From a virus (lineage: Duplodnaviria > Caudoviricetes), in the IMG/VR virus record IMGVR_UViG_3300032038_000028, positions 48,853 through 112,852 of that record: a stretch of 64,000 nt of DNA; one strand, written 5' to 3'. A program made the translations under genes and the position numbers. A model generated the notes under the pieces. That model ran no database searches and was not told the DNA's origin. It saw only the letters and a program-made list of their open reading frames with translations. Shown here one piece after another: positions 2,722-32,394 of the stretch (the first letter of the stretch is position 1; every line of letters begins with the position of its first letter).

Positions 2722-5700
2722 TCAGCTGGCTTCTGCCAGCCTGTAACGGCACAGGTAGTAATATGTCCGCCCGTTGTAGGTCTTCGGGTACCATGAGTTG
2801 GTGTAGACCGGTTTGCCGCTGCCGGTCTCCGGGACGACGCGCAGGATGTCGCCCTTGGCGAACTGCTCCAGATAGCTGCCGTCCTTGATCGTCCACTCAT
2901 GGGTGCCACCGTCCTTCAGGCTGACTGCCGTAAAGGAGTAGGCCCACGGCTTGCCTGTCTTCTTGGACGTCAGGACGCGCACGTCGGACGTGACGTAGAG
3001 GAGAGCTTTGCCGTCGTTCCCCAGCGGTTCGACGTAGCCGAGGTACTCCATCTGGGCGCGGGCCCTTTCGGATGGCTTCGGCGGCGGGAGATGCTGAGAG
3101 CGGACATGGGCTTCGCACAGGGACAGGAGCTTCGGCATGTCGGTGATCGTCCAGCTCTTGAGCGTACCCGCCTTGCCCTGGTCGGTAGCGGCCGACTCAA
3201 TGATGCCCGACAGGCGGTAGGCTTCCACCTTGTCCTTGGCGACGCGGGTGAGCGTGCCCTTGTTGAGCTCGGTGAAGTAGGCGTTGATGGCGGTCAGCTC
3301 CGACGGATTGCCGAAGGCGGCGAAGAAGTCGAGCTGGATCAGGATGTCGAGCTGCAGGGAATTGAGGCTGGTCTCCTGGTCGATCACCTTCAGGACATCC
3401 ATGAAGGAAGCGTCCTGCGGCAGATGCTGAGCGGCTTCGTACAGCTGGTCAGCCACGTCTGCGTTCAGATGCTTGATGGACAGCAGCCCCTTGTAGATGA
3501 CGCCGTTTTCGGTATCGAACATGTAGTCGGCCCGGCTGTGGCCCCATCGTGGCGGGGAAACGGTGACGCCGTGGCTTCTGGCGTAGGCGATGACGGCCGC
3601 CGTCTTATCCGCCTTGTCGGCGTAGACGTTGAGCGCCGCCGCTACGAAGGGGAGCGGGTAGTGATAGCGCAGATAGCCGATGGCATAGCCGATCATTGCA
3701 TAGGCCAGGGCGTGGTTGCGGCTGAAGCTGTAGGAAGAGGCGTCCAGTATGGTCTGAATGAACGGCTTGACGATCTGCTGTGCCTTCTCCTTGGTGACGT
3801 CGTCGTAATGGGCCGGAGCGTATTCGACAAAGCGCCGCTCGATCTCCGGCAGAAGGGATTCCGTGCCCTTCTTCTTGGCGATGGCGCGGCGGACGCTGTC
3901 GGCTTCGCTGCCGGAGTAGCCGCAGAAGAGCTCCAGCCATTTCATAACTGTTTCCTGATAGGTTGCGAACCCGGCTTCGTCTGCGAGGAAATCATTCAGC
4001 GCCTTACAGCCGTTGTCGCGCACCTTCCCTTCCGCTACCTGATCACGGTAGGATGCGCTGCCGGGCCGGAGAAGGCCAGAGGCGAATGCGAACCAGTCGA
4101 TCATGCGGAAGCCAGGGTTGCGGGAGCGGGCCAGAGCGATGATGTCGGGGGACAGAAACTTCTTCAGATAGGCCGTGGCCTGTGCGGATTCAAACTGGAA
4201 GATGCAGGTCGTGTCTTCCCGGATGGACTGCCAGACCTTTGCGTCTTCCATGTCCATGTTGTCCGGCGTCAGCCGTTCGATGCCGGCGTAACGGCAGGCG
4301 CGGTTGATCAGGTCGTTGGAATCCAGCCCGAGCTCGTCCATCTTGACCAGATTCAGGCTGTCCAGCTCCTTCATGTTGAGGCAGGTGATGGGGTAGTTGG
4401 AGCCGGAGGAGGTACACAGACCGATCTCTGCGGCGACGTCGTGGTCGGTGACCAGCACGCCGCAGGGGTGAGACCCGTAGGAAACGACAGTGCCGCTGAC
4501 AATATCCACGTACTCAAACAGCTCCGGGTATTTTGCCCGCACCTCGTCCGGTACATTCCCATCTGCGTCCACCGCCTTGGTCAGCTTATCCACTTCATCC
4601 AGCGGCAGGTTGTCTGCCCGGGCGATGTCGCGGATGGCGCCCTTGGTGGCGATGGTGTTGAAGGTGATGATCTCCGCCGTCTGAATCCCGGAGAAACCCA
4701 TCTTGTCGTCCAGCAGATATTTCTTGGCCAGCTCCCGGTCTGCTTCGGCGTAGTCCACGTCGATGTCGGCGAGGGATACGCGCTCCGGGTTCATGAAGCG
4801 GAAGAAGTTGAGGCCGTACTCCATGGCGTCCACGTCGGTAATACCGGTGACGTAGGCACACATGGAGCCGGTGACGGATCCTCTGCCGTAGCCGGTGGCG
4901 ATGCCGTGTTCCTGTTCCCACATGTGCTGGTGATACTTGAGCGCCATGTAGGGGGAGGCGCCGCACTTTTCAAACACGGCCAGCTCCTCGTCCAGACGGC
5001 GGAACAGGGCTTCCCGCCCGTGCCGCTGCATGGCGTAGGGGTGGCGCTCCGCTGCCTGATACACTTCGTCCCGCCAGAGCTTCACCGGGTCGGCAAAGAC
5101 GTTGGGGTATTTGATGGAGCGGTCGACGGTGAAGGGCTCAATCATGTCGGCGAAGTGATTGGTCTCGTCGATGGCGGCCAGGAAGACAGCTTCGGGCAGG
5201 GAATTCTGAGCACGGTAAGCGTTGACCAGCTCGTCGTAGCTCATAAAGCGCAGGTTCCAGTCCGCTTCGTTGTCAAACCGGACGCCCTTGCCCTGCTGGA
5301 GCTTGACCCTGCCCCGGGCATGGCGCTCGTTGAGGGCGTGACTGTCTGTCCCGGCGATCAGCGGGATGCCATAGCGTTTGGAGTAATCCCACAGCTTCTG
5401 GTTGTACTGGGCCTGCTCGGCGACCAGATGGTGCTGGATCTCCAGCCAGCAGCGGCTCCTGTTTGCCCGCATGAAGCGGAGAAACCGCTCCTCGTCTTCC
5501 GACTTACCGTTGAGCGGGCCGCCCAGACAGGCGGAGGTGACGAGGATGTTGTCCGATGTCCCCTCCAGATCGTCCATGAAGATGCGGGGAACGTAGTAGA
5601 AGTGAGTGGTCTCCTTGCGCTCGAAGGAACCGGAGACCAGACGGTTCAGCTCCAGAAAGCCGTCGTAATTCCGGGCGTACAGGATGACGTGATAGTTGTC

Positions 5701-5949
5701 GCGCACCTTTTCCTCCGGGTGCATGGTGACATAGGCTTCCACGCCGTGCAGATACTTCATCCCGGCCTGCTCGACAGATTCTTTTTTGTGCAGCCACTCG
5801 TCGATGTTCCCGTGTTCCGAAAAGCCGAAGGCCTTTATGCCCAGCTCCGCCGCCCGGGCGGTGTACTGGTAGTACCGGGACACCGAGTCGATGTTGGTGG
5901 TGCAGTTGGACAGCATGGTATGTACGTGATAGGGGACGTAATTCTTCAT
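2722..5949 (-). CDS. dnaE: DNA polymerase III alpha subunit (C-family)
   Basis: PHP domain (HVH, EHGN, GVEAY, SACLGG, TDSH), GRGS, RFMNPER, catalytic DIDVD, KMDELGL, YSFSRNHALAY. Confidence 0.97.
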   Translation of the reverse strand: MKNYVPYHVHTMLSNCTTNIDSVSRYYQYTARAAELGIKAFGFSEHGNIDEWLHKKESVEQAGMKYLHGVEAYVTMHPEEKVRDNYHVILYARNYDGFLELNRLVSGSFERKETTHFYYVPRIFMDDLEGTSDNILVTSACLGGPLNGKSEDEERFLRFMRANRSRCWLEIQHHLVAEQAQYNQKLWDYSKRYGIPLIAGTDSHALNERHARGRVKLQQGKGVRFDNEADWNLRFMSYDELVNAYRAQNSLPEAVFLAAIDETNHFADMIEPFTVDRSIKYPNVFADPVKLWRDEVYQAAERHPYAMQRHGREALFRRLDEELAVFEKCGASPYMALKYHQHMWEQEHGIATGYGRGSVTGSMCAYVTGITDVDAMEYGLNFFRFMNPERVSLADIDVDYAEADRELAKKYLLDDKMGFSGIQTAEIITFNTIATKGAIRDIARADNLPLDEVDKLTKAVDADGNVPDEVRAKYPELFEYVDIVSGTVVSYGSHPCGVLVTDHDVAAEIGLCTSSGSNYPITCLNMKELDSLNLVKMDELGLDSNDLINRACRYAGIERLTPDNMDMEDAKVWQSIREDTTCIFQFESAQATAYLKKFLSPDIIALARSRNPGFRMIDWFAFASGLLRPGSASYRDQVAEGKVRDNGCKALNDFLADEAGFATYQETVMKWLELFCGYSGSEADSVRRAIAKKKGTESLLPEIERRFVEYAPAHYDDVTKEKAQQIVKPFIQTILDASSYSFSRNHALAYAMIGYAIGYLRYHYPLPFVAAALNVYADKADKTAAVIAYARSHGVTVSPPRWGHSRADYMFDTENGVIYKGLLSIKHLNADVADQLYEAAQHLPQDASFMDVLKVIDQETSLNSLQLDILIQLDFFAAFGNPSELTAINAYFTELNKGTLTRVAKDKVEAYRLSGIIESAATDQGKAGTLKSWTITDMPKLLSLCEAHVRSQHLPPPKPSERARAQMEYLGYVEPLGNDGKALLYVTSDVRVLTSKKTGKPWAYSFTAVSLKDGGTHEWTIKDGSYLEQFAKGDILRVVPETGSGKPVYTNSWYPKTYNGRTYYYLCRYRLAEAS

Positions 5950-6092
5950 GACTGCTCCTGTTGGTTGATGATGGGGTGTCTGGCGAACACTTCCTCCAGT
6001 GTCCAGCCCTGCTTATACATGTCCCAGACGTCAAAATACTGAAGGCCCGTCATTTCAGCCACCTGACGGATGGTGAATTCCCAGTCCGGCAT
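5946..6092 (-). CDS. small HTH-like protein (48 aa)
   Basis: MPDWEFTIRQVAEMTGLQYFDVWDMYKQGWTLEEVF, coupled to both neighbours; below the ORF-track cutoff. Confidence 0.55.
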   Translation of the reverse strand: MPDWEFTIRQVAEMTGLQYFDVWDMYKQGWTLEEVFARHPIINQQEQS

Positions 6093-8041
6093 CAGAAAGG
6101 CTCTCCTCCCTGTCCGCTCAACGTCAGGTACTTCTGCATATCGAAGAATGGAAGCTCGTCCTCATGCTCCTCCTTATCCCAGTTATAATGTTTCGCCAGC
6201 ATTTCCGGCGAATCATAGAAACGGCGGGACGGGATGTCGTAGAACAGCGGGATGATCTTGCCCAGAGCGCTTCCAAACCTGTCCTTGATGACGCGGAGCT
6301 GGACGTTGCAGTTGGTAAAGGGTTTTCTTCGCCCGGTCTTGCCGAGCTCCCGGTCTGAGTCCTGTACGCGGTACAGCGAGAAGATGCGGTGTGCCAGGTT
6401 GGCGCTGGACGTTACGCCGGACAGATCGAACAGATCAACCGGCCTGATCTCCATCATCTTCTTCGGGTGCAGGACGATCAGGAGAATGATATCCAGCCGC
6501 CGCGCCATCTCGACGCAGTCCCGGATGAAGACGTCCTGTTTGTGGTATTTGTTTTCCTCATTGGCTTCCAGATCCACGCTGGTCATGTTGTCCAGTACAA
6601 CTGTGCGGACACCGTAGCGTTTCACACAGGCTTCAATGGATTCCATGATGCGGGAAATCTGCGGAGACTCCGTATCCTTGTAGAAGTAGAGCTGGCCTTC
6701 ATAATACTGATTGATGCGCCTGCTGGCCTCCGGCTTGATACGGTATACCGTACGCCCGTCCTTCTGCTCGCTGATCAGGTTGGCCTGCCCGGCATGTACG
6801 AAGTCAATCCACGATTTAAGAAGTGGGTTGTTAAGCTCCCCGGAGTACACGAACGTCGGAAAACCCTGATCCACTGACTGGTTGATGATGGTGGACAGGA
6901 AGGAGCTTTTGCCGGAGCCGGTGATCCCAGTAATCAGATTGGTGGTTCCGCAGAACAGTTTGCCGATCGAAGAATCCAGCTCCTCGAATCCTGTTTTGAT
7001 GCCGTCCACGTCGTCCATGTTGAATTCCCTGACCTTGGTGTAGTCAGCGGCCGACATAATTTCCCGTTCCTTTGCGCTGTTGATGGCGTCGATGACGGCC
7101 TGCTTCCCGCCCCTGGCCAGCAGCTCGTTGAGATCCTTGACGTGATGCGGAACGCCGTTATCGTCCGTCCAGTGGTCGGGCACATCCACCACCTTGCAGC
7201 GGTATTCGCCAAGGCGCCGCGTAGCTTCCTTGACAAACTTCTGCCCGGCCTCGTCGTTGTCATGGATCAGGATGATCTCGGAAAACTGCTCCAGCCACGC
7301 CCAGTTCTGCGTGATGAACTGCAAATTTCCGTCCCCCATCGGGATGGATGTCGAGTTGGTGAACCCGCACTCATATGCGGCTGCGCAGTCGCCTTCTCCG
7401 CAGCAGATGATCAGGGGTTGGGTGATGTTGATGTGGTTCATATTGAACAGCAGGTGCATGGTGTCGCTCTTCATCCACCAGCACTTCATCTTGTCCACGC
7501 CCTTGCGGATAGGCCGGCTGGGCCGCACCTTGACGCAGCGGAGCACATCTTCCAGATCCCAGTAGCAGAAGCAGGTGTTGCCGCCGGTGTCCTGCATGAT
7601 ACCAAGAGCGTCGATGGTTTCAGGAGAGATACAGCGTTTCCGCCAGTAGGCGTAGACTTCATCCTTGTTGTCGGCCCATTCCGGCTTGGGGTAGGCGTAG
7701 TCCCGGTCGGTCGGGATGCCGCGGTAGGAGAAGTTGTGCGGCATATCAGCTTCCTGGAACAGCTTTTCGGCCGCCTGCAGGAAGGTATCTCCTGCGCTCA
7801 TCCATGCGTCGATGACGTCGTAGGTGGCATGGCATCCGAAACAGTAGAAGTTGTGGGCTCTCGGGTTATAGGAACAGCTTGGGGTGTCGTCGTGATGGGC
7901 AGGGTTGGGGCAGCACCCGATCCGGCGCTGAGGGTTATACTTTTCCAGCTTCATGACATCGGCGATGATCTCGGCATTCCGGTCGCCCAGACGCTCTTTT
8001 GCTTCTTCGATTCTTTCCCGGCTGATATTGGAGTCCATCAA
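6092..8041 (-). CDS. bifunctional primase-helicase (Zn-binding + TOPRIM + DnaB-like, T7 gp4/Twinkle type)
   Basis: CPNPAHHDDTPS..FYCFGC zinc finger; TOPRIM DNDEAG; Walker A GITGSGKS; VVLDN; LHPKK; KDRFG. Confidence 0.93.
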   Translation of the reverse strand: MMDSNISRERIEEAKERLGDRNAEIIADVMKLEKYNPQRRIGCCPNPAHHDDTPSCSYNPRAHNFYCFGCHATYDVIDAWMSAGDTFLQAAEKLFQEADMPHNFSYRGIPTDRDYAYPKPEWADNKDEVYAYWRKRCISPETIDALGIMQDTGGNTCFCYWDLEDVLRCVKVRPSRPIRKGVDKMKCWWMKSDTMHLLFNMNHINITQPLIICCGEGDCAAAYECGFTNSTSIPMGDGNLQFITQNWAWLEQFSEIILIHDNDEAGQKFVKEATRRLGEYRCKVVDVPDHWTDDNGVPHHVKDLNELLARGGKQAVIDAINSAKEREIMSAADYTKVREFNMDDVDGIKTGFEELDSSIGKLFCGTTNLITGITGSGKSSFLSTIINQSVDQGFPTFVYSGELNNPLLKSWIDFVHAGQANLISEQKDGRTVYRIKPEASRRINQYYEGQLYFYKDTESPQISRIMESIEACVKRYGVRTVVLDNMTSVDLEANEENKYHKQDVFIRDCVEMARRLDIILLIVLHPKKMMEIRPVDLFDLSGVTSSANLAHRIFSLYRVQDSDRELGKTGRRKPFTNCNVQLRVIKDRFGSALGKIIPLFYDIPSRRFYDSPEMLAKHYNWDKEEHEDELPFFDMQKYLTLSGQGGEPF

Positions 8042-26667: not shown

Positions 26668-26859
26668 TCAGTAGATCCACAGGGCTTGCTCGAAGGTCTG
26701 CCCGTCCACTGTGACGTTAATGAGCCAGTCACCTTCCGCCGGGCGAACGTATTCGTTGAGCCAGATTTCGGCGTCCGCTACGACGTGATGGATGCCGCTG
26801 CGGAATCCGATGAACCATGCCAGTGCGGCGACCAGCAGGACGGCGATCAGTTTTTTCAT
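26668..26859 (-). CDS. small membrane-anchored protein, paralog of 30175-30339
   Basis: Signal-like N-terminus; G..H....A..W...DG pattern. Confidence 0.65.
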   Translation of the reverse strand: MKKLIAVLLVAALAWFIGFRSGIHHVVADAEIWLNEYVRPAEGDWLINVTVDGQTFEQALWIY

Positions 26860-27227
26860 GCGTCATTCTCCTTCCATTCCAGCTTGTACACCCGGTGGGC
26901 GGTCGCTTCGGTGTCTACGATCCAGTACCGGCGAATGATTTTCGTTTCCCGATCCGGCGACACACTGGTCAACTGGGTCGGCAGGTAGCCGGCGTAGGTA
27001 TAGCCGTACTCGGTGCGCTCCGTTCCGCCGAGATTCCGGAAGAACGGGATGGCGTCGAAGATGTTGTGGTAGAATTCGTAGGAGATTTTGCGCACCGTTT
27101 CTGAGTCCGGCTTGGTCTTCCAGCTCTTGCCGGAAGTCGTGCGGGAGAAGCGCTGTTCCTTTTCCACTATGACGGCGTTCTCCAAATAGCTGCGGTTCAT
27201 GCGAATGTTGCGGGTGGGATCAGACAT
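26856..27227 (-). CDS. hypothetical protein downstream of hammerhead 1
   Basis: AGAAAGGAAGG SD; PFFRNLGGTE...YTYAGY. Confidence 0.75.
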   Translation of the reverse strand: MSDPTRNIRMNRSYLENAVIVEKEQRFSRTTSGKSWKTKPDSETVRKISYEFYHNIFDAIPFFRNLGGTERTEYGYTYAGYLPTQLTSVSPDRETKIIRRYWIVDTEATAHRVYKLEWKENDA

Positions 27228-27267
27228 AATTTACCTTCCTTTCTGGCTCCGTTGAGCCTGTACAATG

Positions 27268-27329
27268 TAGCCTGTCTCGTCAGTAACGGGCGGCCATTCC
27301 CGTCAGACCGCCCGAAGGCGGTTTCGACA
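27268..27329 (-). ncRNA. type II hammerhead ribozyme (HH1)
   Basis: GUC-GAAA-CCGCC(UUCG)GGCGG-UC^-UGACGGG(AAUGGCCG)CCCGUUA-CUGACGA-GAC; loop UGGCC can pair with 3' GGCUA. Confidence 0.93.
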
Positions 27330-27358
27330 ATTCGATTTCCTTTCCGGTTCCGTTTACC

Positions 27359-27751
27359 TTATGCGGTCTGCTCGGCGGCTTCGGCAGCCTTCTTCGCTTC
27401 CCGTTCCGCCCACCACCGTTCCGAGGCGATACGTTCCTGCTCGCGCCGCTCGGCATTCTCGTTCAAAATCTTTTCCTGTTCCGCGGGAGACACTTCGCCG
27501 ACCAGCTTGTACACGTACAGCGTGTAGGCATCCTTGCCATTCTGCTGTTCCTCGTCCCACTCGTAACGGCGGGACGCCTTAATAATCTTATCGGGGGCCT
27601 TTTGGCCTGGTTTATACTGGTAACGTTTTATCAATTCGGGTTCCAGCGCGTAGTCGTCGAAGCTCTTGACGTGGCTCTGTTCGCACTCATAGCAGAGATC
27701 GTAGTCTTCGTAGGTCTGGCCGCAGTGGTCGCACACATACAGATTTTTCAT
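27359..27751 (-). CDS. zinc-finger hypothetical protein
   Basis: YVCDHCG...C..CE..H. Confidence 0.75.
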   Translation of the reverse strand: MKNLYVCDHCGQTYEDYDLCYECEQSHVKSFDDYALEPELIKRYQYKPGQKAPDKIIKASRRYEWDEEQQNGKDAYTLYVYKLVGEVSPAEQEKILNENAERREQERIASERWWAEREAKKAAEAAEQTA

Positions 27752-28101
27752 TTTGATTTCCTTTCTGGTTCCGATGAACCTTAGTCCAGATCGTCCAATG
27801 TGAGAATGCCCATAGCCCAGAAGAGCTTCCAGAAGGTTTCCGAATTGGTTCTGATTCCGTTGGGCAGATGGATGTCGCAAACGGTGCTCCGCTGACGGTG
27901 CGAGCAATATTTGCTGTTCCGCGTGGTATATAGGGGTGTGATCTGATTCCCCTTGACGTAGGCGTAAAGCATGATTCGATTTCCTTTCCGGTTCCGTTGA
28001 ACCTTTTGGGATCGTTTCGGGTTCCGTTTACCTATGTGTATAATATGCAAGATTGTGTGTATAATTATGCATTTTGGAATCGATTCGGGTTCCGTTGAAC
28101 C

Positions 28102-28443
28102 TTATGCAAGCTGTTCAGCTGCTTCCCGTTTCGCCCAAACGTGGTCTTGTGCATCGTAAACCTTGTTCCGCTGGTGCCACTTCAGGCGGTTGTCTCCGGC
28201 GTCCAGATCCACTGTGTAGGATCCGTCGTTGAAATCCACGAGCCGTCCGCCGACGAAATCGCCAGCGTCAGCCCAGACCTGATTCCCGTTCCGCATATAG
28301 AACTTAATGACTTCATCGCCGGATATGATGGTTACGTCCACCTTGACGACGTCTTCGATCTTGACGCAATCCAGATAATGACGGTCGTTCCGATAATCCA
28401 TTACGCATGCCAGTCCGTTGTGCTTTCCTTTGTAGGTGCTCAT
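28102..28443 (-). CDS. hypothetical protein
   Basis: AGAAAGGAG SD preceded by the hairpin motif. Confidence 0.75.
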   Translation of the reverse strand: MSTYKGKHNGLACVMDYRNDRHYLDCVKIEDVVKVDVTIISGDEVIKFYMRNGNQVWADAGDFVGGRLVDFNDGSYTVDLDAGDNRLKWHQRNKVYDAQDHVWAKREAAEQLA

Positions 28444-28476
28444 GATCCTATCTCCTTTCTGGTTCCGTTGAACCTA

Positions 28477-28707
28477 TCAGAAAACCCGCATGTAAGGCTG
28501 TTCCGGTTCCGAGAGCTGAAGGTAGCAAGCAAGCTGACGCTTGACATAGAAATTCTCTTCCTCGTTGATCTTACCAACGATGAAGAGAATCAATTCCGAT
28601 TCCAGTATATGCCCCTGCTTCCATTGGGCGATCTTCTCACGGATTTCTGCCTCTGCCAGAGCAAAGCGGGCGTTAGCATTCCGTTCCATCGTTTCTGTAA
28701 TCTTCAT
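28477..28707 (-). CDS. hypothetical protein downstream of hammerhead 2
   Basis: AGAAAGGAG SD preceded by the hairpin motif. Confidence 0.7.
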   Translation of the reverse strand: MKITETMERNANARFALAEAEIREKIAQWKQGHILESELILFIVGKINEEENFYVKRQLACYLQLSEPEQPYMRVF

Positions 28708-28752
28708 TGTTATCTCCTTTCTGGTTCTGTTATGAACCTGTGCATAAAAATA

Positions 28753-28813
28753 CAGCCTGTCTCATCAGTAGCGGTAGGCTGGTTCCGCCAGACCGCCCGA
28801 AGGCGGTTTCGAC
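28753..28813 (-). ncRNA. type II hammerhead ribozyme (HH2)
   Basis: GUC-GAAA-CCGCC(UUCG)GGCGG-UC^-UGGCGG(AACCAGCCUA)CCGCUA-CUGAUGA-GAC; loop CAGCCU pairs with 3' AGGCUG. Confidence 0.95.
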
Positions 28814-29353
28814 TTCCATCAGCGGCGAGCGTCCCAATCGAAAAGGTAGCTGGTTCCGGTGGCCACTGCGACAAATTTGATGTGTCCGTCATTCGGAGCG
28901 TCGAAATGGACGAAGCTTTCCGCTTCCGCATAGGTCATTTCTTTTGTGGTGCTGGTTCCGTTCCAAGTCATGATCGTTACATTGCACTTTAAGTTTGCCA
29001 TAGTGATACCTTCCTTTCTGTCGTTGAGTTATGAAAACCGGTTTCGATTCCGGTTCCGCTCTTAATAAAAACGCCGTCCAGAGCGGGCGGCGAGCTTGCG
29101 AATGTTCCGTTTGAATTGTTTTGCCTGCCAGCGTTCGGCGCGTTCCTGCTGGATTCTGTCTCCGTCGAAGACGGCGTGCAGGAAATGCTGTTCCTTCACA
29201 AACTCGATGATGCAGGCTATCAGGTAGGCCAAGCAGAGGAGGGCAAAGGGGATAGCTGCAATGAGCCAGTTGGGCGGGAGCATAAGCATTTTCCTTTCTG
29301 ATTCCGATATGGATTCTGGTTCCATCATCGCCTCTTGCGGCGATTTTTGGCAT

Positions 29354-29376
29354 AAAAAAACCGCCCGAAGGCGGTT
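29354..29376 (-). terminator. intrinsic terminator
   Basis: AACCGCC-TTCG-GGCGGTT followed by a T run. Confidence 0.8.
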
Positions 29377-29392
29377 GGGTGCGGAAGCTGGG

Positions 29393-30124
29393 TTATTCGT
29401 AACAGTTGAAATACTCGAAATACAGGGTTACATACTGGTCATGCCGCTCGACGCGCACGCCGTCGGGGTGAATCGGCTCCTGAGCTGGAGCATCGTTAGA
29501 CAGTACATCGTCAAAGCAGTCGCCCAAGTCGATGTCAGCAGACTCGGCTATGATGTTGATCTCCAAGATTTCGACGCCGTAATAGGCACGGGTCGTGTCA
29601 GTGGCTTTGTAGTGCTTTGCAACGACGTCATGGCGTTCGCTGACCTCGGGCTTGCCCATGGCCAAATTCATCACCTGCTGCCACTTGGCGGCAAACGACA
29701 CTTCGTCAGGGAAATCGCCTTCAACAGGCGTCACGTTGTCGATGGTACAGTTGAATTCTTCGTTGATATGCCTGCACAGACAGTCGATCTGTGTCAGCCT
29801 GCTTTCGACAGGTCTGGTCTTCGGTGGTAACTGCTCAGCGTCGTCAGTCTGCCGCCCTTTGTGCTTGAGCACATCGGCCCAACTGTCGATCACTGCCTGC
29901 GGAGCGCCCGCCATTTGCAGGGCACCAAGTTTCAGGTACACCTCAGATGCGGGCGTTGTCTTAAAATCATCTCCTTCAAAATATCGTTGTGCGGCGTCAG
30001 GATCGCGCCACAGGTTGTAAAAGTGATAAGGGTCTTCATTGAACATTTTTCGGAACTCTTCTTTTTGCTCATCAGTCAGCTCAGAAGGGTCAAGGTCGTC
30101 AAGATATAGCATGCAGGTTATCAC
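29393..30124 (-). CDS. acidic hypothetical protein with its own promoter and terminator
   Basis: 243 aa, GTG start, GAAGGGAG SD. Confidence 0.75.
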   Translation of the reverse strand: MITCMLYLDDLDPSELTDEQKEEFRKMFNEDPYHFYNLWRDPDAAQRYFEGDDFKTTPASEVYLKLGALQMAGAPQAVIDSWADVLKHKGRQTDDAEQLPPKTRPVESRLTQIDCLCRHINEEFNCTIDNVTPVEGDFPDEVSFAAKWQQVMNLAMGKPEVSERHDVVAKHYKATDTTRAYYGVEILEINIIAESADIDLGDCFDDVLSNDAPAQEPIHPDGVRVERHDQYVTLYFEYFNCYE

Positions 30125-31286: not shown

Positions 31287-32394
31287 AGTGTACCTCCATG
31301 GCGCCAGTGGCGCAGTTTTTTAGCTCGGGCCGTCATCATTGCAGGCGGCGCGAACAGGGAGGCCCGGCCGATCGAAATCAGCAGGGCCTGAGGAAGTACT
31401 ATATGCGCACGGCCGAAGCCGAGAATTTCGCATGGTTTAACACTTATGCCAGTTACTATGCGTATCGCCCACAAGCCGCTCCCAGATACTAAGAGCCAGT
31501 AACAGACAGGAGAGATGACAAACCTGCCCCATCGCGGACGATTCGCCAGTGCGCTGACACTTGGCGAGTAACGGCAACTTCGGTATGGTGCCACTACCAG
31601 ATTGTACCCCCGTACTACACGAGCAGTCTGTACAGGTAGGCTGACCGCTTCACAGCGGACCACAGACGACCCCGCGCAAAAAATGCGACAGTTTCCCGTC
31701 TGCGATGCTCATGCCGCCCAGCCGCTATGCGACCGCGCGACACGAGCGCGAAACCCGCGCCGCGACCGCCGCGCCAACCGCGACCGCCGCGCGCTTTATT
31801 ATCGCGCTCACAATGGACGGGAACGAGACCGAGAAAAAGTATGAACAAACTGTGAACAAATTATGAACGAGAAAAAGAGTGAAAACGCGACCGCGACCGC
31901 CGCGCGGATACGCTGACGGTTGGAAAAGTAACACTTTCGTAACATGATTTTTGATTTTTGATCAGAAAAGCGGGGAAATACTCACGCATAAAAAAAAGCC
32001 CGTCTTAAAATCGAGATGAAAATGCCTGTGAAATGAGGCGTTTTAACATATGAACAGGCGCTCAGACTTAAAATCGACCAGATACGACAAAAAGAGCGAA
32101 AAAACGCCGAAAAACAGGCATTTTCCGGGCTATTTTTGATCAGGAAACGCCATTTTCCCCGCCGTCAGAGGAAAAACGGTATAAATGTTACAAAAATGTA
32201 ATAATTATATACAGAAAATGGATAAAAATACATATAAAACGGCAGTTTATACATTGATATACATTGAAATTGTATAAAAAAATCTCAAAAAAATAGAGAA
32301 AATCGTCTGATCAGGCAGGAGAATTTCACTTTTTGTCGAATATGTATAGTGTAATTCAATACACCACACCACTACATGAAGGAGGAAACACACC

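Follow-up and report, generated by a model that had tools for sequence, protein, structure and literature searches.

What do self-cleaving ribozymes set between the genes of a phage do for the RNA that carries them? The question is raised by two elements, here called hammerheads A and B, on the minus strand of a 64,000-nucleotide (nt) stretch of DNA (the window), which forms the final 64 kilobases (kb) of IMG/VR record IMGVR_UViG_3300032038_000028, the 112,852-base-pair (bp) genome of an uncultivated phage that is complete by CheckV. Both elements occupy intercistronic gaps in a minus-strand run of densely packed small ORFan genes. Judging from the sequence and that of its relatives, we consider it probable that A and B are type II hammerhead ribozymes that cut the operon RNA between cistrons, and that the hairpin-bearing leader found beside them is a separate, generic element that serves as a recombination joint. 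Hammerheads between phage genes have been known since 2011, and the layout as such is not new; a 2019 review describes their purpose in phages as still undefined and calls for more work (PMC6765202).

In hammerhead A, the open stem II has 4 bp (UGUC, 27329-27326, with GACA, 27276-27273), and its 5' strand is followed by GAAA (27325-27322) and a 6-bp stem III, ACCGCC-UUCG-GGCGGU (27322-27307). Stem I has 7 bp (27305-27299 with 27290-27284) and closes an 8-nt loop I, the core CUGACGA lies at 27283-27277, and a 5-bp pseudoknot joins UGGCC of loop I (27296-27292) to GGCUA of the 3' tail (27272-27268). Hammerhead B has the same stem III sequence with its UUCG loop, a 3-bp stem II (GUC, 28813-28811, with GAC, 28761-28759), a 6-bp stem I closing a 10-nt loop I, the core CUGAUGA at 28768-28762, and a 6-bp pseudoknot between CAGCCU of loop I (28781-28776) and AGGCUG of the 3' tail (28758-28753). 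The U1.1-A2.1 and G10.1-C11.1 pairs, the A-U closing pair (15.1-16.1) and the GUC triplet are present in both copies, and both have type II topology, with stems I and III closed by loops and stem II open. An earlier note on this DNA, made from the letters alone, had recognised the full core, the GUC triplet and the shared UUCG-capped stem III in two minus-strand elements, and our reading of the sequence confirms this; the two cut positions it predicted are correct to the base as sites. It had also remarked that stem I differs between the copies and still pairs and that the pseudoknot covaries, which corresponds to one compensatory pair in each (A-U versus G-C in stem I, U-A versus C-G in the pseudoknot). 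Folding of the isolated elements recovered stems III and I as the predicted structure. The two hammerheads are co-oriented and 1,485 nt apart, with four small genes between them.

Covariance models assign both elements to the type II class. The earlier note had proposed an Infernal search with the Rfam model RF02276, whose gathering score is 37 bits: hammerhead A exceeds it at 49 bits (expectation value, E, 5e-7 over the window), whereas hammerhead B, at 33.9 bits (E 2e-4 over 3 kb, 1.9e-6 per genome), falls 3 bits short because its loop I has 10 nt. This shortfall is the only difference from the RF02276 class (PMC3088659), with which both copies share the conserved core, closed stems I and III, a short open stem II, the pseudoknot and a phage origin. 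An independent covariance model (R1), built on 41 other phage type II hammerheads and including no window sequence, gives 68.6 bits for A and 69.1 bits for B (E about 1e-17), scores that are partly by construction, as the 41 members were chosen via the shared stem III. Searched with R1, the retrieved sequences (IMG/VR contigs L003-L064) yield 73 type II hammerheads, spread over 42 of them. In the realigned family of 73, 95.4% of the cells are paired and 13 of the 16 pairs show changes on both sides; the covariation score of this alignment, which was fitted to the covariance model, is 0.642, compared with 0.136 after shuffling and at most 0.083 with partners slid. Taken singly, the two pseudoknots are just modestly above chance (loop shuffles match them in 185/2000 and 94/2000 trials), and at the family level the pseudoknot averages 4.57 bp versus 3.67 +/- 0.14 with tails permuted. 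A chance origin of the hammerhead motifs is ruled out by the Rfam and R1 scores. These data show that A and B are real type II ribozyme folds, for which self-cleavage is predicted. The 112,852-bp genome holds no further hammerhead copies besides A and B.

Placement in relation to genes is regular across phage type II hammerheads. Sixty-two IMG/VR contigs contain the exact 21-nt CGAAAC-stem III-GUC segment, and many contigs carry three to seven co-oriented copies (e.g., L025, L040, L026 and L020, with four to seven type II hammerheads each, spanning a few kb). In each of the 43 testable copies that share stem III, the ribozyme is preceded, at a distance of 1-18 nt, by the end of an open frame 40 codons or longer, as against 20% of random positions. 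Among the 73 family members, the gap from stop codon to C11.1 has a median of 2 nt (61 of 73 within 7 nt), and the stop codon therefore belongs to the 5' strand of stem II; a Shine-Dalgarno (SD) sequence and start follow A9 at a median of 29 nt (interquartile range 26-35). The core-to-start distances in the window, 49 and 54 nt, lie in the upper tail of the 73-member range because of an extra hairpin. The succession of stop codon, ribozyme, ribosome site and start is the general geometry of the class, and the hairpin a local addition. We found no statement of this regular stop and start geometry in PMC3088659, PMC6765202 or PMC7536230, and any functional model must account for both the 2-nt stop and the 29-nt start spacing.

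The hairpin belongs to a repeated leader unit whose order is stop codon, GGUUC-AACG-GAACC, SD sequence, 7-9 nt and start. With up to one mismatch, GGAACCNGAAAGGA has eight matches in the genome, all on the minus strand between window positions 27237 and 29305, and none in the other 110 kb; a repeat finder returned a 41-nt family of eight copies. One of the motif matches falls in the long intergenic region at 28101-27973, which also has a further degenerate copy of the hairpin. Behind each ribozyme, the 5-bp hairpin begins 9 nt (A) or 14 nt (B) past the pseudoknot tail and is followed by AGAAAGGA(A/G)G, and these hairpins, the ribosome-binding sites and the start codons at 27227 and 28707 lie exactly where the earlier note had put them. 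The hairpin after A carries a compensated double change, from U-A to C-G (GGCUC/GAGCC). Folding predicts that the leader hairpin forms, at about -6 kcal/mol, and the intergenic regions and leaders are not distinct from shuffled sequence (folding z-scores -0.3 to -1.4). Four leaders are ribozyme-free, ahead of ATG codons at 29283, 28443, 27972 and 27751. Because copies precede four ribozyme-free genes and one sits upstream of hammerhead A, the hairpin with AGAAAGGA reads as a generic local leader that serves most genes of the 2-kb cluster, not as part of a ribozyme device. The 130- and 113-amino-acid (aa) genes have similar last codons (..AAEQTA and ..AAEQLA), and over the stretch made up of these, the stop codon and the first part of the leader, the likeness is 78% (27356-27382 and 28099-28125); the repeated unit therefore extends into the 3' ends of some genes.

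What the leaders do can be approached through relatives. Public phage records gave no DNA match to 26800-29400, the leader motif had no match in IMG/VR, and the A/B-type hammerhead pattern had none in GTDB genomes or IMG/VR. Metagenome relatives were found via the leader (L066 and L067) and via an identical 76-aa protein (L068-L072). In L067, the leader-hammerhead A-leader module is 97% identical to that of the window from stop codon to start codon, and the ribozyme itself is identical in sequence (again 49 bits). The gene upstream of the module is the 63-aa gene and not the 130-aa gene, these two being swapped, and the gene downstream is unrelated to that of the window. Homology between L066 and the window ends just past a leader. 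In L068, hammerhead A is absent, and the gene that follows A in L067 has an SD sequence alone in front; in L069, the 5' half of A (the stem II strand, GAAA and the 5' arm of stem III) is replaced, leaving a 19-bit remnant before a 270-aa gene. In the five related contigs that have the 76-aa gene, hammerhead B is unchanged in sequence and stands immediately ahead of it each time. The leader hairpin varies: it is mismatched after A in L067 (GACUC/GAGCC, an A.C mismatch), where the hairpin upstream of A is intact, it is broken in several copies (GGUAAACGGAACC, GGUAAAAGGAACC and GGCAAACGGAGCC), and it is precisely deleted in L068 and L072. CGGAACC and the SD sequence, not the stem, are constant across leaders.

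Since homology between relatives breaks at leaders and the flanking genes differ, the leaders appear to act as recombination joints for shuffling small genes among related phages. The repeated intergenic motif borders variable small open reading frames, and the breakpoints of the relatives coincide with it. A parallel exists in the PeSL cassettes of T4-type phages (PMC2839356, PMC4122927), in which stem-loop repeats flank variable small open reading frames in a hyperplastic region and mark the points where close relatives have had genes inserted, replaced or reordered. The parts differ, however, in that PeSL combines an early promoter with a terminator-like stem-loop, whereas the unit here is stop codon, hairpin and SD sequence with no recognisable promoter and no U-tract.

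A and B plausibly lie on one transcription unit, because the minus strand has no terminator-like site from 29359 to 24240. The sole consensus promoter found is at 30168-30140 (11/12 matches), with a strong intrinsic terminator (29376-29359) between it and the ribozymes. The consensus scan called no promoter in the leaders, at 28101-27973 or elsewhere feeding the two ribozymes, and the early polycistron of which the earlier note speaks is a supposition. The long intergenic region at 28101-27973 holds two tandem AT-rich TGCATA..TATACA boxes, which may mark an internal promoter or operator.

For hammerheads at gene junctions, the natural reading is that they cut the message between cistrons. Perreault et al. 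(2011; PMC3088659) described type II hammerheads with the pseudoknot between loop I and the 3' tail in prophage clusters that flank single genes or short blocks, and proposed that they process long phage transcripts. The locus resembles those clusters (PMC3088659, PMC6765202) in that co-oriented ribozymes bracket a block of small genes, with transcript processing as the proposed role; it is unlike them in that B is fixed to its gene and A is gained, truncated or lost along with a repeated leader. As the operon RNA is made, each ribozyme would fold into closed stems I and III, an open stem II and the pseudoknot, and would cut 3' of C17 (27306 and 28791). The upstream product would end in the UUCG-capped stem III bearing a 2',3'-cyclic phosphate, and the downstream product would begin with a 5'-OH directly at the stem I hairpin and pseudoknot. 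Of the hammerhead permutations, only type II leaves each of the two products with a closed hairpin, and the structured ends of both should resist exonucleases, which may uncouple neighbouring cistrons, both in their decay and in the RNA context upstream. The leader, for its part, would be the site of gene exchange, through which whole leader-hammerhead A-leader modules are joined to differing genes.

Several points weigh against this account. Hammerhead A is gone from L068 and truncated in L069, which means that any benefit it gives is dispensable, and hammerhead B is below the RF02276 gathering score. Protection of ends and uncoupling of cistrons draw on general knowledge of bacterial RNA decay. 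The unpaired probability of the SD sequence (partition function) is 0.55-0.60 after A and 0.75-0.84 after B, cleaved or uncleaved alike. The GGCUC/GAGCC compensation hints at selection on the hairpin stem, which a pure recombination joint would not need. Given the promoter scan and the possible internal promoter, A and B need not share a transcript. The locus leaves the question of what benefit hammerheads bring to phages unanswered, and it offers natural comparison sets: near-identical leaders with and without a ribozyme inside one operon, and one gene with (L067) or without (L068) hammerhead A, besides the truncated A of L069.

That same gain and loss could mean that mobile intergenic cassettes carry the hammerheads as passengers, which may cut RNA, confer no selected benefit on expression and move by leader recombination. 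Two genomes have hammerhead A intact, L069 has a truncated form, and L068 lacks it in front of the very gene that has it in L067; the occurrence of the 21-nt segment in 62 unrelated IMG/VR contigs suggests horizontal spread of a module. We nevertheless think this unlikely, as hammerhead B is identical and always stands before the 76-aa gene in 6/6 genomes that have this gene, and in the family as a whole strong compensatory covariation and very regular stop and start placement indicate selection on an active fold at that place.

The earlier note had seen in each ribozyme and its hairpin a RiboJ-like insulator. On this view the two would form a dedicated, co-evolved device giving a standard 5'-OH leader with an exposed ribosome site whatever lies upstream. 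RiboJ is built on a type III, sTRSV-derived ribozyme that is kept on the downstream RNA and has a purpose-built hairpin. In both copies the order of ribozyme, 5-bp hairpin, SD sequence and start is like that of RiboJ, and the ribozymes do lie at gene junctions; these parts of the claim stand. The hairpin after A stays paired through its double change, the hairpin is predicted to form with the SD sequence mostly unpaired, and the leader-hammerhead A-leader module precedes three different genes in the manner of a plug-in part. The downstream RNA would, as in RiboJ, have a predicted 5'-OH and a defined leader. RiboJ, however, is a hammerhead with a 23-nt hairpin (PMC7536230), whereas the 14-16-nt hairpin here is the generic leader element that also serves without ribozymes, before four ribozyme-free genes and upstream of A. 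In the relatives, moreover, it is mismatched behind the ribozyme in L067 and broken or precisely deleted in other copies, and most of the 73 phage type II hammerheads leave no room for one. Computed accessibility of the SD sequence does not change upon cleavage. In the case of a type II ribozyme, half of the ribozyme departs on the upstream piece, unlike RiboJ. The coupling of hairpin to ribozyme that defines RiboJ was examined and is not found at this locus, and the insulator role claimed for the pair seems quite improbable to us.

Ribosomes might also govern cutting. In such a scheme, ribosomes at a stop codon near stem II, or at a UUG codon, unfold the ribozyme, and cleavage reports on upstream translation. 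The stop codon lies within the 5' strand of stem II in most family members, at the median of 2 nt before C11.1 given above, and the SD sequence of the leader upstream of A, together with a UUG, opens a 16-codon frame (27331-27281, minus strand) that crosses hammerhead A and ends at the UGA of its core CUGACGA. Ribosome loading at this frame and folding of hammerhead A would be mutually exclusive, and the frame is also present in L067. In L071 (1477-1534), the 60-aa gene has CGA in place of its stop codon, owing to a T-to-C change, and its reading frame continues through 18 codons of hammerhead B and closes at the UGA of the core. In the window, however, 7 nt and 32 nt separate the stop codons from C11.1, an overlap weaker than that of the family, and the UUG frame is accounted for by the leader junction. 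We regard translation-coupled cleavage as very improbable here.

Hardly credible, finally, is a circular phage mRNA. In this reading A and B would excise a 1,485-nt, four-gene RNA (28790 to 27306), at whose ends the 5' half of A (UGUC-GAAA-stem III-GUC) would pair with what B contributes, its 3' half (stem I, CUGAUGA, GACA), into a complete hybrid hammerhead with a 4-bp stem II; a host RtcB-type ligase, or the ribozyme reaction run in reverse, would then close the RNA into an exonuclease-proof circle. Perreault et al. (2011; PMC3088659) searched for spliced or circular products and found none.

The features of the locus are collected in the table. Pfam, PHROGs and the ESM Atlas returned nothing usable on what the flanking genes do (Pfam only for the 63-aa gene). 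Searches for relatives of the 123-aa and 130-aa proteins gave one distant match in IMG/VR (L065), which has no hammerhead, and none in GTDB genomes; a further search with the 130-aa protein gave none. Comparison with L067 (22 synonymous versus 14 amino-acid changes over 127 codons) indicates that the 130-aa gene is under purifying selection relative to that contig. Farther along the minus strand lie genes for a primase-helicase (6092-8041) and a DnaE-type polymerase (2722-5949).

Features of the hammerhead locus (window positions; all on the minus strand).
Feature	Position	Strand	Remarks
Hammerhead A, type II	27329-27266	-	All core bases, three stems and pseudoknot
Hammerhead B, type II	28814-28751	-	All core bases, three stems and pseudoknot
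Predicted cleavage site A	27306/27305	-	3' of C17 (27306); GUC triplet position
Predicted cleavage site B	28791/28790	-	3' of C17 (28791); GUC triplet position (Rfam alignment and sequence)
Leader after hammerhead A	27228..27258	-	Hairpin GGCUC-AACG-GAGCC 27258-27245; SD AGAAAGGAAGG 27244-27234; spacer; ATG 27227
Leader after hammerhead B	28708..28738	-	Hairpin GGUUC-AUAACA-GAACC 28738-28723; SD AGAAAGGAG 28722-28714; spacer; ATG 28707
Leader upstream of hammerhead A	27332..27358	-	5' arm broken (GGUAAACGGAACC); SD GGAAAGGAAA; stops 1 nt before the ATG position of its sibling
Ribozyme-free leader	28444..28474	-	Ahead of 113-aa gene
Ribozyme-free leader	27973..28003	-	Ahead of 63-aa gene
Ribozyme-free leader	27752..27780	-	Ahead of 130-aa gene
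Long intergenic region	27973..28101	-	Two degenerate leader copies (hairpins from 28101 and 28032; no SD)
AT-rich spacer, hammerhead B tail to leader hairpin	28739..28752	-	Contains near-palindrome TGTATTTTTATGCA; kept in relatives
60-aa ORFan gene	28819..29001	-	TGA ends 7 nt ahead of C11.1 (C of CGAAAC) of hammerhead B
76-aa ORFan gene	28477..28707	-	Downstream of hammerhead B; identical protein in L068-L072
113-aa gene	28102-28443	-	Preceded by ribozyme-free leader
63-aa gene	27781-27972	-	Preceded by ribozyme-free leader
130-aa zinc-ribbon-like gene	27359-27751	-	Preceded by ribozyme-free leader
123-aa gene	26856..27227	-	Downstream of hammerhead A; phrog_16226 (PHROG of unknown function)
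Intrinsic terminator	29359..29376	-	Hairpin has 17 nt (AACCGCCUUCGGGCGGU) in common with stem III of A and B

The stretch that the terminator hairpin has in common with the ribozymes would fit a role of stem III as a protector of 3' ends. Stem III of A or B as a terminator in its own right is ruled out, as no U-tract follows. The surrounding region (29382-29311, minus strand) has a second hairpin and then GAUGAUGG, and gives a weak R1 match of 21 bits. A ribozyme may have decayed here and become a terminator, or the likeness could be a coincidence of the highly stable UUCG hairpin.

Near-palindromes of the form TGCATA..(A/T)..TATACA occur at 28741-28756, 28056-28071, 28035-28052 and 32219-32234 (six matches versus 1.5 expected). 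One lies between hammerhead B and the leader hairpin, and the long intergenic region holds a tandem pair with a spacing of about 21 bp. Within window positions 1-29400, the minus strand has 24 copies of the leader constant CGGAACC and the plus strand none, and for GGAACC the figures are 48 versus 11; coding sequence contains many of these copies, and loop I of hammerhead B contains one. This strand bias may reflect codon usage or a sequence signal.

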